IMG/VR virus record: IMGVR_UViG_2880378312_000001
Strand: one strand, 5' to 3'
From: a virus
Lineage: Duplodnaviria; Heunggongvirae; Uroviricota; Caudoviricetes
Length of the DNA stretch: 20,976 nucleotides
Shown: piece after piece, positions 1,315 to 9,433 of the stretch
How positions within the stretch are numbered: position 1 is the stretch's first letter
How the letters are laid out: each line of letters starts with the position of its first letter
Translations under genes and position numbers: made by a program
Notes under the pieces: generated by a model
Told to the model about the DNA's origin: nothing
The model's database searches: none
What the model saw: the letters and a program-made list of their open reading frames with translations, nothing else

Positions 1315-2956
1315 ACAATATATTTATTTTTGAACCAAGCAATAAAAACAACCCTCTCGATAATGTTATTAAGTTTATCGAGTTTTGTAAGAGTACTATT
1401 TCTAATAATAATTTAACAACTTCATGGGAAAGCAATAAATGGAAAGGTTTATATAGGTTTACTAAGTTTAACTCAAAAAACAACCTAAACAGCAAGGAGT
1501 GCTTAGATGATAGCTTTATTAATTTTGCTAAAGCATATATGTTGCATGTGCATTCATTCAATAAATCTAAGACGAAACACTCAACATTATCAATGTTGAA
1601 GATTGTCGAATTCGTTTTACTTAAAATCAATATGGAAGCTAATGTAAACTATTGCAACAATTCAATCTATGATGAATGCATAAGGATAGCCTCTGAAAAG
1701 TATTCTAAAGCACATGCATTTGCTATTGGGAAAGAACTTGAGAATTTGAGTTCATTTTTAAATGATAATAGGATGACTAACTCATTTTATTTATTTTGGG
1801 TAAATCCAATTAGGTATAGGATTACTCAGTCTTGGACTGGTTATGATTCTTCACTGGAAGGCCATTCTAGATTGCCTGATATCAAATCAGTTATTGCGAT
1901 TGCTGAGATTTTTTCAAAGCGGGATGAACAATTATCGTCAAGAGATATATTTACTACATCTGTGCTTGCTTTACTTATGTGTGCACCGAGTAGGATATCG
2001 GAAATTTTAGCTTTGCCAGCGGATTGTGAAATCACAGAATGTGATGGAAAGGGCATTCAAAGATACGGTTTAAGATTTTTTTCAGCAAAAGGGTATGAAG
2101 GCAATATAAAATGGATTCCAACTTTAATGATACCTGTAGCTAAAAAGGCTATTAGCAGATTAAAAGAATTATCAAGTCAAGCGAGGTTATTGGCTGCTGA
2201 AATTCAAAAGAATTACTCTAATTCAACGAAGGGAACCCTTAAAGAAAATATACCTCCTGATCTCTTTTGGTATGATAGAGAGAAGAAAATCAAATATTCT
2301 AATGCGCTTTGCTTGTTAACTGAAGGACAGTTAAATCAAAATAAAAAGGAAATGTCAGATAAATTATTCAGACCTACAACGAATTTTTTTAAAACTGATA
2401 TCATTGATTCTGATTATATAAAAGGGTATTTTAATGTTTTTAAAAGACATGGTTATATAAATGAAGATGGTAGCCCATATTTGCTAAGAACACATCAACT
2501 AAGGCATCTTCTCAACACATTTGCTCAAATAAATGGTATGGATGAAATGGTATGGATGAATTTAGTATTGCTCGCTGGTCTGGACGTAAGCTTATTTCTC
2601 AAAATGTTTCTTATGACCACAGATCGCATCTTCAAATGTCTAAAGCAATAAGAGAAAAAAAGTTATCAGTATGTGTTAATGAGCACAGAATAAAGGATAT
2701 TCCAGTAGTGGATCTTAATGAGTTTGACTCACTTAGTAGTGGTGCAGTACTTGTATCAAAACATGGCTACTGCAAGCACTCATATGCGTTTAAGCCGTGT
2801 GATAATTATCCAATTAAGAACTCTGGTTTAGATAACGAAACGATTTCAAATATCCACGATAAAATTTTAAAAAGAACACTGTATGATAAAAATGATGGGA
2901 ACATAAATGCTGATAAATGGTATGAATTCCATAAAAAAATAAAAAAAGGAGAATAA
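1311..2956 (+). pseudogene. Tyrosine-recombinase-fold protein B (Tn554 TnpB-like position), frameshifted by a 14-bp tandem duplication; repaired length about 543 aa
   Basis: ORFs 1311..2651 and 2552..2956 join into one frame if one copy of atggtatggatgaa (2533-2546 / 2547-2560) is removed. The repaired junction reads HQLRHLLNTFAQINGMDEFSIARWSGRKLISQNVSYDH, matching the HxLRH...G...Y..H catalytic spacing of tyrosine recombinases without gaps. Box I-like APSRISEILAL lies upstream. Confidence 0.6.
2533..2560 (+). repeat. Exact 14-bp tandem duplication (atggtatggatgaa x2) inside recombinase B
   Basis: Direct reading of the sequence; 14 is not a multiple of 3, so the frame shifts between Box II and the catalytic Tyr. 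Confidence 0.9.
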
Positions 2957-3355
2957 ATGGCTAAGCATATAAATGGTTATCATGAGAAGAAGATTGTAGA
3001 TGTTATTAACACATGGTCTATAGATGAAAAACTAACCTGGAATGCTTTGTGCGATAGGTTAGTCAGGGTTATTGGGAAAAGACCATCAAGACAATCCTTA
3101 AGTAGTCATGTAAGGATTGCGGAAAGCTTCAATGTGAAAAAAACCACAATCAAATCTGGTGTAATACACACTGTAAAACCTGCTAATTTAAAAGTGGCTT
3201 CTCAACGAATTAAAAGACTTGAAGCAGAAAATGAAGCTTTGAAGGCATTAAATGAACGCTATTTAGAGCAGTTCAAAGTATGGCTTTATAATGCTCACCT
3301 TAAACAAATAACGATTGAAGAACTTAATAATCCGTTACCTGCAAAATACCTTTAA
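2957..3355 (+). CDS. Small coiled-coil protein (132 aa), third gene of the recombinase operon (TnpC-like position)
   Basis: ATG sits directly after the stop of the upstream gene with AAAAAAGGAG RBS. Heptad-like segment IKRLEAENEALKALNERYLEQ. No recognisable catalytic motif. Confidence 0.5.
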   Translation: MAKHINGYHEKKIVDVINTWSIDEKLTWNALCDRLVRVIGKRPSRQSLSSHVRIAESFNVKKTTIKSGVIHTVKPANLKVASQRIKRLEAENEALKALNERYLEQFKVWLYNAHLKQITIEELNNPLPAKYL

Positions 3356-4261: not shown

Positions 4262-5500
<1,239 letters not shown>

Positions 5501-5575: not shown

Positions 5576-5971
5576 CTAAAAAATGCCAGTCTTCACGTTG
5601 CTTGTTCCAGCATTAAAGATGTATGTGCTGACTTTTTCGCCTTTGAAAGAAACTGTCAGAGATTTAGTTTGTGAGTCTGCGCCACCTGCAAGCAGTCCCA
5701 CAACGGGGATGAAAGAGGTTGCTTTGGACTGGCTGTTATACATAGTGTATGACCATTGTTCTTCACCATCGATCAAAGAACGGCTGTCAGGTTCACCGAA
5801 CGATGCTAACACGTCCTGTTTTGTAGTTTTGCCTTTAACAATTTTGGTTTTCACACTTTCCTGCGTCTCATTTTTCAATGACTGGTTGCCTACTGAAGAA
5901 CAACCTGCCAAGGTCAGAAAAACGAATCTATATGAGAGTTTTTTGTACCTGAGACTAAATCGCCCTCCCAA
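5576..5971 (-). CDS. Putative lipoprotein whose native 5' end is replaced by IS30-derived sequence; ORF-track start at 5971 is a TTG inside the IS30 remnant
   Basis: Lipobox FLTLAGC-SS then a hydrophilic mature region. Sequence above about 5927 belongs to IS30, so the first ~14 codons of the ORF are IS30-derived. Confidence 0.4.
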   Translation of the reverse strand: MGGRFSLRYKKLSYRFVFLTLAGCSSVGNQSLKNETQESVKTKIVKGKTTKQDVLASFGEPDSRSLIDGEEQWSYTMYNSQSKATSFIPVVGLLAGGADSQTKSLTVSFKGEKVSTYIFNAGTSNVKTGIF

Positions 5972-6669
5972 TGCCCTAGAGAGCGTCTGTTATCGATATT
6001 TCGGGAACGTTCGTGAATTGGTGTTCCGTTCACTATGTTAATCGTACCTCTTTCGCCTTTGCGGGTATGACGCCTGCCATGGCGAAGGCTATGCGACCGT
6101 CGCAGATGCTGTATATTCAGGTGGTGTAGCGCTTCACGGCTACGAAAGTACAGCGTTTTATAAATTGTCTCAGGTGATATTCGCAGCGTTTTTTGACGTG
6201 GTTTTGTTCGCCTTAACCATCCTGATATTTGCTCTGGAGACCATTTCATCTCCAGCTTTTCCAGAACAAGCTTTCGCAATGGTAAATTTTGATCCAGTAA
6301 GCACGGTTTTGGCCTTTTCGCCATTCTGTTGGCTCGGTTATTAGCATCAACAGCTTTGTAATAGCGTCTGCCCCGATTACGCTGAACTTCACGTGAGATC
6401 GTCGAAGGACTGCGATTCAGCGCAGTAGCTATCGCACGAATGCTCATTTTGGCTGACAAACCAGCTCGTATCTCCTCGCGCTCAGACAGTGTCAGGTGAG
6501 CTACAGCCCGCTTACGCTCATGGGGTTTTATGCCGCCAGTATCCCTTAACATAGTGAAGATCGTTCCGGGTTTTGAACCCAGGATATTCGCTATTTCACT
6601 GAAGCCTGTTCCGTTCTTCCATAGTTCAAAAACAGAGGCTTTTTCCTCTGCTGTAAATGTTCGTCTCAT
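5914..6669 (-). pseudogene. insI: IS30 transposase, C-terminally truncated (about 247 of 383 aa retained)
   Basis: N-terminal HTH region and start of the DDE domain recognised from memory; premature stop after junction-derived residues DSFF. Confidence 0.8.
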
Positions 6670-6731
6670 TCAAAAAACCTCCGCAACCCCATGTTTTCAC
6701 ATAACTGTTGCGTTGACCAATTGAATCTACA
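5927..6731 (-). mobile_element. IS30 remnant: left inverted repeat plus about the first 247 codons of the transposase; 3' third missing
   Basis: Reverse complement of 6717-6731 is TGTAGATTCAATTGG, the IS30 terminus as I recall it. Transposase ORF matches IS30 InsI from MRRTFTAEEKASVFELWKNG through DLVSGTKNSHI, then diverges (DSFF-stop). Confidence 0.8.
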
Positions 6732-6745
6732 GTGGTCTGTTTTAA

Positions 6746-6804
6746 TATTTCTATTTCTATTTCTATTTCTATTTCTATTTCTATTTCTATTTCTATTTCT
6801 ATTT
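6746..6804. repeat. Hexanucleotide microsatellite (TATTTC)x9 plus a partial unit
   Basis: Nine perfect units at 6746-6799 then tattt; begins 15 bp outside the IS30 terminus. The overlapping ORF 6691..6939 (poly-LF) is an artefact. Confidence 0.95.
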
Positions 6805-6998
6805 GTTGTGATTTTTTCTTTAGTTCATGTATTTCGATTTGTTTCTGAATTATCGGGGGTAGTGTCTTCCCTTTTCCCTGAGGCTTATCATGCAGTTATT
6901 TTCGCCATCTTGGTATTGTGGAAATACCGACATCCATAGCTTTGGTGAGCTCTGTTCAGGTGGCCAAATTCAGAAAACCATTACGGAGGAAGAAGGCG

Positions 6999-7565
6999 AT
7001 GGCTAAACCAGCGCGAAGACGATGTAACCGTAAAAGAGAAGATTTAACTGTTAAAAGGATATTTGAGTTACTAAGTTTCGATAAATCTACCGGGGTATTT
7101 AGATGGAAAGTTCCCACTCAGGGAAGGATAGCATTAAATAGTGTTGCTGGAGCTTTTGATTCCAACGGTTATTCAATGATCATGATAGATGGGCGTAGAT
7201 ATAAAACTCACGTCTTAGTTTTTTACATAACTCATAATCGTTGGCCTGCTGGTCAAATTGACCACGTTAATGGAATTAGGACCGACAATAGGCCAGAAAA
7301 TTTAAGAGAATGCCTGCCAATAGAAAATTCAAGAAATATAAGGATCCGAAAGAATAGCAAATCAGGTTGCAGAGGGGTTACTTGGCACAAACGACAGAAA
7401 AAATGGAATGTTAGGCTAGGATTCCATGGCAAGAGTAAACACTTCGGATGCTTTGATGATCTGGAGTTAGCGGTACTAGTTGCTGAAGAAGCCCGAGATA
7501 AGTATTACGGTGATTTTTCCGGCAACGAAAGGAGCACTTATGCGAATCTATCGAAGGAAATGTAA
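6999..7565 (+). CDS. HNH endonuclease with AP2-type DNA-binding domain (homing-endonuclease-like); start taken at MAKPARRRC
   Basis: HNH motif [18 protein letters not shown]2-like segment [48 protein letters not shown] before ATG 6999. First nine residues match the N-terminus of lambda NinG as I recall it. Confidence 0.65.
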
Positions 7566-8151
7566 ATGTTGCAATGAATGGTTTATACCAAAATATCAAA
7601 ATCAATATTGGTGTAATGAGATTTGTGGAACCAAGATAGCACTCGAACGACGAAGTAAAGAACGCGAAAAAGCGGAAAAGGCAGAAAAGGCAGCAGAGAA
7701 GAAACGACGACGAGAGGAGCAGAAACAGAAAGATAAACTTAAGATTCAAAAACTCGCCTTAAAGCCCCGCAGTTACTGGATTAAACAAGCCCAACAAGCC
7801 GTACACGCCTTCATCAGAGAAAGAGACCGCGACTTACCATGTATCTCGTGCGGAACGCTCACGTCTGCTCAGTGGGATGCCGGACATTACCGGACAACTG
7901 CTGCGGCACCTCAACTCCGATTTGATGAACGCAATATTCACAAGCAATGCGTGGTGTGCAACCAGCACAAAAGCGGAAATCTCGTTCCGTATCGCGTCGA
8001 ACTGATTAGCCGCATCGGGCAGGAAGCAGTAGAGGAAATCGAATCAAACCATAACCGCTATCGCTGGACTGTCGAAGAGTGCAGGGCCATCAAGGCGGAG
8101 TATCAACAGAAACTTAAAAAACTGCGAAACAGCAGAAGTGAGGTTGCATGA
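7540..8151 (+). CDS. ninG: NinG/Rap-like recombination protein
   Basis: Cys-rich N-terminus, [23 protein letters not shown] basic stretch and C-terminal region match lambda NinG from memory. AAAGGAG RBS before ATG 7540. Overlaps the upstream HNH gene by 26 bp. Confidence 0.7.
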
Positions 8152-8813
8152 ATATCTACGAAAGAATTGATGGCAGCAAATACCGAAATATTTGGGTAGT
8201 TGGCGATCTGCACGGATGCTACACGAACCTGATGAAAAAACTGGAGACGATAGGATTCGACACCAAAAAAGACCTGCTTATCTCGGTGGGCGATTTGGTT
8301 GATCGCGGTACAGAGAACGTAGAATGCCTGGAATTAATCACATTCCCCTGGTTCAGAGCTGTACGTGGAAACCATGAGCAAATGATGATTGATGGCTTAT
8401 CAGAGCGTGGAAACGTCAATCACTGGCTGCTTAATGGCGGTGGCTGGTTCTTTAATCTCGATTACGACAAAGAAATTCTGGCTAAAGCTCTTGCCCATAA
8501 AGCAGATGAACTTCCGTTAATCATCGAACTGGTGAGTAAAGGAAAAAAATATGTCATCTGCCACGCCGATTATCCTTGTGATAAATACGAGTTTGGAAAG
8601 CCAGTTGATCATCAGCAGGTAATCTGGAACCGCGAACGAATCAGCAACTCACAAGACGGGATCGTGAAAGAAATCAAAGGCGCGGACACGTTCATCTTTG
8701 GTCATACGCCAGCAGTGAAACCACTCAAATTTGCCAACCAGATGTATATCGATACTGGCGCAGTGTTCTGCGGAAACCTCACATTGATTCAGGTACAGGG
8801 AGAAGGCGCATGA
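8148..8813 (+). CDS. PPP-family Ser/Thr protein phosphatase (lambda NinI/ORF221-like)
   Basis: Signature motifs GDLHG, GDLVDRG and GNHE in canonical order; ATGA overlap with ninG stop. Confidence 0.85.
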
Positions 8814-9433
8814 GACTCGAAAGCGTAGCTAAATTTCATTCGCCAAAAAGCCCGATGATGAGCGACTCACCACGGGCCACGGCTTCTGACTCTCTTTCCG
8901 GTACTGATGTGATGGCTGCTATGGGGATGGCGCAATCACAAGCCGGATTCGGAATGGCTGTATTCTGTGGTAAGCACGAACTCAGCCAGAACGACAAACA
9001 AAAGGCTATCAACTATCTGATGCAATTTGCACACAAGGTATCGGGGAAATACCGTGGCGTGGCAAAGCTTGAAGGAAATACTAAGGCAAAGGTACTGCAA
9101 GTGCTCGCAACATTCGCTTATGCGGATTATTGCCGTAGTGCCGCTACGCCGGGCGCAAGATGCAGAGATTGCCACGGTACAGGCCGTGCGGTTGATATAG
9201 CCAAAACAGAGCAGTGGGGGATAGTTGCTGAGAAAGAGTGCGGAAGATGTAAAGGCGTCGGTTATTCAAGAATGCCAGCAAGCGCCGCATATCGCGCTGT
9301 GACGATGCTAATCCCAAACCTTACCCAACCCACCTGGTCACGCACTGTTAAGCCGCTGTATGACGCTCTGGTTGTGCAATGCCACAAGGAAGAGTCAATC
9401 GCAGACAACATTTTGAATGCGATCACACGTTAG
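8810..9433 (+). CDS. Q: Late-gene antiterminator Q, lambda type
   Basis: 207 aa; matches lambda Q from memory ([28 protein letters not shown]..., zinc-binding CRDCHGTG...CGRCKG). Followed by a lambda-like late promoter. Confidence 0.75.

Follow-up and report, generated by a model that had tools for sequence, protein, structure and literature searches.

An HNH-AP2 endonuclease gene stands at the head of ninG in lambdoid prophages and opens with the first nine ninG codons

In a lambdoid prophage of Escherichia coli O157:H7, an endonuclease ORF that begins like the NinG protein of phage lambda precedes and overlaps ninG itself, which raises the question of how the endonuclease came by this beginning and in what form ninG is encoded behind it. 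The window, i.e., the whole stretch of DNA analyzed (IMG/VR record IMGVR_UViG_2880378312_000001, 20,976 nt), represents an O157:H7 lambdoid prophage, with positions 6900–7700 being 100% identical to many O157:H7 chromosomes. It is collinear with the Sakai prophage Sp17, in which the pair is annotated as ECs_3504 (‘endonuclease’) and ECs_3503 (‘recombination endonuclease’), and RefSeq already labels them ‘HNH endonuclease’ and ‘recombination protein NinG’. The initial annotation, made from the sequence of the window, claimed that the endonuclease begins as lambda NinG does, and that the following ninG gene has a different start and overlaps the endonuclease. Both observations were borne out: the lambda Nin204/NinG translation begins (M)MAKPARRRC, with 40 of 42 nt matching at the DNA level, and ninG opens at 7540, sharing 26 nt (7540–7565) with the endonuclease ORF. 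The endonuclease is read in a different frame from the ninG body, with its stop codon lying between the two. The ninG product matches Pfam NinG (PF05766) at 271.5 bits over profile positions 5–192 of 193 and is chimeric, with a cassette-derived head and a lambda-type body from 7624 on; within ninG, 7624–8151 is 95.3% identical to lambda and 99.7% identical to O55:H7. Of 63 endonuclease-positive loci, 58 have a full-length ninG ORF of 200 or 203 aa. The features of the locus are collected in Table 1.

Table 1. Coordinates of the endonuclease cassette, the chimeric ninG gene and their flanks in the window
Feature	Position	Strand	Description
Class A left flank	6746–6985	+	TTTCTA hexamer array and unique sequence; replaces ninF
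Relic of the lambda-type ninF-3'/ninG-5' junction	6986–7027	+	42 nt, of which 40 bases equal lambda and O55:H7
HNH-AP2 homing-endonuclease ORF (predicted)	6999–7565	+	188 aa; ATG 6999, TAA 7563–7565; ECs_3504
Captured ninG codons 1–9 (MAKPARRRC), forming the endonuclease N-terminus	6999–7027	+	From alignments to lambda and O55:H7
Endonuclease-specific cassette body	7028–7539	+	39% GC; without counterpart in lambda or O55:H7
Shine-Dalgarno AAGGAG	7529–7534	+	Inside the 3' end of the endonuclease ORF; 5 nt before the ninG ATG (7540)
Substitute ninG head	7540–7623	+	29% GC; 26-nt overlap with the end of the endonuclease ORF
ninG (Rap Holliday-junction/branched-DNA endonuclease), chimeric	7540–8151	+	203 aa
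Right-hand homologous crossover zone, TGTGGAACCAAGATAGCACTCG	7624–7645	+	Lambda identity rises from ~56% to ~100% (alignment, BLAST coordinates)

The origin of the endonuclease N-terminus can be read from the relic of the lambda-type junction (pairwise E about 5e-14 against lambda and O55:H7). The relic comprises the Shine-Dalgarno-like GAGGAAGAAG, the stop of the ninF frame (TAA, 7004–7006) and ninG codons 1–9 plus 2 nt, and because the match includes the ninF-end bases upstream of the ATG, it reflects homology and not chance. In the window it forms an island of lambda homology flanked by two non-homologous junctions, and it was present in all 66 endonuclease-positive loci examined, in five near-identical variants. 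The left junction of the cassette lies at 7027/7028, after CGATGTAA, and is a non-homologous join inside ninG codon 10. As in lambda, ATG 6999 and the ninF-frame stop (ORF 6890–7006) overlap; the endonuclease ORF, opening at this old ninG ATG, thus inherits the ribosome-binding context of ninG. From 7028 to codon 60, which is already inside the folded domain, the endonuclease contains no in-frame ATG, GTG or TTG, so that it can be made only from the captured ninG ATG. In alignments of homologues, the relatives of the endonuclease (at most 44% identity) start ~10 residues later and stop ~11 residues earlier.

The cassette as a whole (7028–7623, 596 bp) stands in for 64 bp, approximately codons 10–31, of lambda-type ninG. 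The initial annotation had proposed alignment with lambda and other lambdoid ninG loci as a check, and this alignment placed the boundaries at 7027/7028 and 7624: lambda-type identity stops after CGATGTAA (7027) and restarts at TGTGGAACCAAGATAGC (7624). The substitute head, with a GC content of 29% versus 52% for the lambda-type stretch that it replaces, is 56–61% identical in nucleotides to the heads of lambda, Emek, ES18 and H-19B; it is homologous to known NinG heads and keeps the N-terminal cysteines C8, C10, C11, C25 and C29. Since the cassette brings a Shine-Dalgarno sequence, the ATG at 7540 and this diverged head, the locus still encodes a full-length NinG that includes the N-terminal cysteine cluster. 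The earlier claim that the insertion had split the start of ninG from its body can be refined: nine old codons are indeed stranded on the endonuclease, but ninG is neither headless nor fragmented, because a complete head with translation signals of its own is supplied and only the old codons 1–9 are left behind.

No terminal inverted repeats were found around 7028–7623 and no transposase domain by Pfam, and positions 6500–8300 gave no Rfam match at E ≤ 1, to an intron or to any other family. Two copies of ATGTAA (7022–7027 and 7560–7565) were considered as an insertion duplication and rejected, as they belong to two homologous ninG heads. A candidate alternative right boundary, H51, was also rejected; it corresponds to an IS1203 insertion 11 nt past the endonuclease stop. 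The promoter scan gave a single weak candidate, on the minus strand, which is below the number expected by chance, and a terminator-like stem-loop (6855–6870, plus strand) lies upstream of the endonuclease ORF. Further into ninG, the lysine/glutamate-rich linker of the protein shows a 9-nt in-frame indel at 7675–7683 (GAAAAGGCA, adding EKA), with the insertion shared by the O157 carrier locus and the O55:H7 non-carrier and absent from lambda and from the O103 and O111 carriers.

The initial annotation had made its reading depend on endonuclease-free alleles of the locus, and these proved to be common, as O55:H7 TB182A and the loci with collinear ninE-ninF-ninG-ninH illustrate. TB182A is near-isogenic, agreeing with the window at 99.68% over 7624–8880, and has a lambda-type head behind ninF. 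A virtual non-carrier construct, joining O111 carrier flanks through the lambda-type 64 bp, matched real, collinear chromosomes in one piece at 98.7%. All carriers have identical junctions and non-carriers are collinear on both sides, i.e., the cassette is a presence/absence polymorphism at one site. In strain 27_141091, an endonuclease-free lambda-type ninG resides together with a carrier allele in one chromosome. This coexistence fits repression of the nin region in a lysogen, and it fits equally an enzyme that is inactive or has a different target.

The substitute head, for its part, was not found without the endonuclease in phages or E. coli genomes; the best one-piece match of the E. coli genomes to a virtual excision product was 83%. 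Among IMG/VR contigs with this head, 51 of 52 carry the endonuclease and the remaining one ends at the contig edge, and a metagenome scan for the head alone returned seven contigs, all with the endonuclease. An ancestral or precisely excised allele (MAKPARR(K/R)CKxCNEWFIP) was not found in the metagenome scan, and a protein search with the 40-aa substitute head yielded seven short fragments and no endonuclease-free full-length allele. Several decay variants of the locus were recorded. In P0019, one of the seven fragments, the ninG head is frameshifted and starts out AT-rich but becomes lambda-type within the diverged segment. The others comprise L135 (~3496, minus strand), with an internal ninG deletion, L013 and L014, with the ninG ORF truncated at 35 aa, L068, with a frameshifted endonuclease, and L003 (3677–4990), with IS1203 inserted 11 nt past the endonuclease stop.

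Carriers amount to 533 of 5,426 complete E. coli genomes (about 10%), while full-length matches to the region in the phage collection are limited to the two Stx1 phages SH2026Stx1 and AU6Stx1. In 24 of 66 loci (e.g., O111 11128, PK8217 and 14EC007), which we refer to as class B, the endonuclease immediately follows an intact ninF and takes the position of ninG. The other 42, including the window, have the class A flank, in which an unrelated module replaces ninF up to 13 nt before the ATG. This flank is common to the window, O157, O103 and Stx1 phages (SH2026Stx1) and is absent from lambda; it is a separate mosaic junction outside the endonuclease cassette. A P22-like prophage of Salmonella Infantis carries the 596-bp cassette behind ninF with 5 mismatches. 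The replication and Q modules also vary among carriers.

Profile searches and structural modeling were used to characterize the endonuclease. Residues 68–107 match Pfam HNH_3 (PF13392) at 42.7 bits (cut-off 24.8, E 4.2e-11), and residues 123–171 match AP2 (PF00847) at 22.1 bits (E 1.9e-4), under the cut-off of 33.3; the protein matches phrog_99, ‘HNH endonuclease’, at E 6.6e-71. Residues D88, H89, N101 and N110 are invariant in an alignment of 13 homologues. The AF2 model (mean pLDDT 85) has a confident core, in which the HNH part consists of strands 86–89 and 102–105 followed by helix 107–113 (pLDDT ~90), and the AP2 part of strands 127–130, 135–142 and 145–152 followed by helix 155–173. Using Foldseek, the C-terminal domain was matched to the AP2 domain of AtERF1 (1gcc; rmsd 1.3 Å over 51 columns, TM-target 0.67, probability 1.00) and to the AP2 domain of TEM1 (7et4). 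For the whole model, the top structural match in the PDB was I-HmuI (1U3E) with a probability of 0.99, but with a global E of 4.9e-3 and TM of 0.37; a PDB sequence search returned a marginal AP2 match only. The ends of the model are poorly ordered: residues 1–10 have a mean pLDDT of 60, residues 1–12 lack secondary structure, and residues 178–188 fall below 50. These ends correspond to the captured ninG codons and to the overlap with the new ninG start. Taken together, profiles and model support an HNH_3 endonuclease with an AP2-like fold, for which nuclease activity is predicted.

The nearest relatives of the endonuclease, P0004 and P0006 (44–47% identity), are found in T7-like or unidentified contigs and not in nin regions, and hence identify no donor. 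Among GTDB species representatives, the scan for the endonuclease gave only a 39%-identical planctomycete gene. In the T7-like metagenomic contig, P0004 (44% identity) stands directly after a T7-type endonuclease I (Holliday-junction resolvase) gene (L124:1033–1927), and in phages HK629 and HK97 a small HNH gene is located immediately upstream of rusA. HNH genes adjoining junction-resolvase genes thus recur, which may be a coincidence.

Across 59 carriers, nucleotide diversity is 0–0.011 (mean about 0.004) over the endonuclease and the substitute head and climbs to 0.02–0.10 over the ninG body, where mosaic haplotype blocks switch at varied points. On the left side, a value of about 0.01 for the 42-nt patch gives way to about 0.1 in ninF, within 50–150 nt. 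The variable codons of the endonuclease comprise 12 synonymous and 12 non-synonymous ones (crude dN/dS about 0.27), and a frameshifted allele was found in one of 65 loci. The diversity gradient is compatible with homing and co-conversion, although ordinary lambdoid exchange after a single insertion would produce a similar picture.

Based on these observations, we propose, with a probability of roughly 70%, that a free-standing HNH-AP2 cassette replaced 64 bp of lambda-type ninG and has been spreading by intronless homing. The suggestion of the initial annotation that a free-standing homing endonuclease had invaded the 5' end of ninG is supported by the existence of endonuclease-free alleles, by the position of the endonuclease behind an intact ninF and by its lack of a start of its own. 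During co-infection or induction, the enzyme would nick or cut an endonuclease-free ninG near the insertion site, the target probably lying in the 64 bp missing from carriers. Repair by recombination could then copy the cassette in, with the 42-nt patch on the left and the conserved body of ninG providing homology, and such copying would amount to intronless homing with co-conversion. The diverged substitute head would shield carriers from their own enzyme. The cassette may have come from an unsampled AT-rich donor; a source of this kind is suggested by the low GC of both head and body and by the T7-like context of the nearest relative. We infer cleavage and active homing by the ninG endonuclease from these patterns, and the simple genetics of lambda make the predicted target in lambda ninG codons 10–31 directly checkable.

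An alternative that we regard as rather unlikely treats the cassette as a passive passenger, inserted once, possibly by illegitimate recombination, and spread only through general or Red-mediated recombination at ninF/ninG. The enzyme would then no longer home at ninG, or never have done so, and could have another role such as damaging competing lambdoid phages. Carriers make up only about 10% and non-carrier alleles are many, both kinds can share one genome, any single-origin marker in a recombining region gives a diversity gradient like the one described, and the highly conserved ninG offers ample homology for ordinary exchange. A passenger sits less easily with an ORF that is almost always intact and under purifying selection, with conserved catalytic residues, and with a cassette that is common to Salmonella P22-like, E. 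coli lambda-like and Stx phages at 5 mismatches per 596 nt while their flanks differ far more. In addition, the HNH_3-AP2 proteins of phages are the class to which thousands of phage records assign homing-endonuclease function.

The borrowed codons themselves admit two other accounts. They could be a by-product of inter-allelic recombination instead of the primary insertion scar, if a donor endonuclease with its own start had stood upstream of an AT-rich ninG and a later crossover with a lambda-type head had created the MAKPARRRC fusion. The 3' end of the cassette does contain a homologous, diverged ninG start (ATGCGAATCTATCGAAGGAAATGTAA versus ATGGCTAAACCAGCGCGAAGACGATGTAA), which places two ninG heads of different lineages in tandem, and the substitute head is similar to the RRKCKxC type seen in H-19B and ES18. 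We nevertheless consider such a secondary chimera improbable, because 66 loci, 52 IMG/VR contigs and 7 metagenome contigs contained no native endonuclease start and no other left junction, and the sequences at 7027/7028 have no homology that could mediate a crossover; in practice, it is a variant of the main explanation, with the same illegitimate join as its first step. That MAKPARRRC arose by chance or through ORF calling, with the true start elsewhere, is scarcely credible. The frame does extend upstream to GTG 6918 and one protein cluster uses a 215-aa form, but this extension exists only in the class A flank, the class B loci having ninF there in another frame; moreover, the 40/42 identity to lambda includes non-coding upstream bases, and no internal in-frame start precedes the folded domain. 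The DNA-level match to lambda and the class B loci with ninF refute this account.

The proposed spread by intronless homing has precedents in lytic phages. SegF, SegG and MobE of phage T4 are free-standing homing endonucleases of T-even phages and move by intronless homing. Like them, the ninG endonuclease lies outside any intron or intein and is polymorphic for presence at a fixed position; in both cases, spread is presumed to involve break repair with co-conversion of the flanks, and carriers differ in the adjacent sequence of the target gene. Unlike them, the ninG cassette occurs in temperate lambdoid and P22-like prophages and not in T4-like lytic phages; its endonuclease is not intergenic but startless and fused to the first nine codons of the invaded gene; and the cassette brings a replacement head for its target gene, with cleavage here being predicted. 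In Aeromonas phage Aeh1, mobE is inserted in nrdA. In Felix O1-like phages, nrdD is split by a homing endonuclease (PMC4837284). The ninG locus resembles both of these in that the endonuclease is placed inside a coding sequence and host function is kept by re-initiation past the insert, but in Aeh1 nrdA and Felix O1-like nrdD the host protein becomes two polypeptides that must assemble. NinG remains one full-length polypeptide because no more than nine residues stay behind on the endonuclease and a complete homologous head comes with the cassette.

At the protein level, HNH-AP2 endonucleases of phages were reportedly described by Magnani et al. in 2004. Those of Felix O1/wV8 and RB49 share with the ninG endonuclease the order HNH_3 plus AP2, a length of about 150–190 aa and a core identity of 30–44%; their genes have starts of their own, lack the 10-residue N-terminal and 11-residue C-terminal appendages, and none is located at ninG. 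I-HmuI, a nickase encoded by the group I intron of SPO1, carries a helix-turn-helix at its C-terminus. In the model, the ninG endonuclease resembles I-HmuI in an N-terminal beta-sheet DNA-binding region, an HNH beta-beta-alpha-metal motif and an elongated multi-domain build. It differs in sequence (15% identity, TM 0.37) and in having an AP2 fold as C-terminal DNA-binding module. Given that I-HmuI is a nickase, double-strand cleavage should not be assumed for the ninG endonuclease.

Our literature search found no description of an endonuclease at ninG or of the anatomy of its junction. As both genes are annotated in RefSeq and the class of element is well known, the advance is anatomical rather than conceptual. 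The locus offers a precisely mapped before/after pair in which a free-standing homing endonuclease, as we read it, enters a coding region without killing the gene, and it suggests that selfish nucleases add to the mosaicism of the nin region in lambdoid prophages, Stx1 phages and O157:H7 Sp17 among them. A further idea, which we hold tentatively and at less than even odds, is that the mobile unit is a ‘re-heading’ cassette: lacking translation signals of its own, it would parasitize the start of its target and the ribosome loading coupled to ninF, while the recoded, AT-rich head would both restore the function of the target gene and give immunity to the nuclease of the cassette itself. If so, re-heading would be a compact alternative to introns and inteins for harmless entry into coding sequences, and the ninF/ninG junction could serve as a tractable lambda-based model of homing in temperate phages.

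Other insertions were noted at the same junction. In E. coli 14EC007 a second, different HNH_3 remnant of 50 aa interrupts ninF (L010:2912–3660); it is 44% identical to the endonuclease core and directly precedes the ninG-head endonuclease. In phage ES18, ninF and ninG are separated by gp68, an unrelated gene of 72 aa. On the strength of the 14EC007 remnant and gp68, the ninF/ninG junction seems to be a repeated landing site.

The region to the left of the cassette has a history of its own. In class A loci such as O103 and Stx1 phages, ninF is replaced by a 590-aa gene and the TTTCTA hexamer array, and in intact loci the array forms the spacer between the endonuclease and this divergent gene. 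The 590-aa protein (L006:659–2431, minus strand) belongs to phrog_9230, has no Pfam match and is absent from the window; its gene runs antisense to the early-right operon and has the look of a moron. The Sp17 rearrangement removed this gene together with everything from the integrase cluster to the endonuclease. A perfect TTTCTA array occupies 6746–6806 of the window (also L006:~2740–2830 and L002:~2955–3060), and its copy number varies between O157 Sp17, O103 and the Stx1 phage SH2026Stx1; the array could be a promoter-region tract prone to slippage, or no more than a variable repeat. The class A flank of the window is abutted by a truncated IS30 transposase (5914–6669, minus strand) of which the N-terminal 251 aa only are left, and the gene of a BamE-domain lipoprotein (5576–5971, minus strand) adjoins this remnant. 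Still further to the left, the 412-aa ORF ECs_3507 (4262–5500, plus strand) ends in ~25 Pro-Glu dipeptide repeats, and its sole Pfam match is a sub-threshold one to the trypanosome procyclin repeat, which is compositional.
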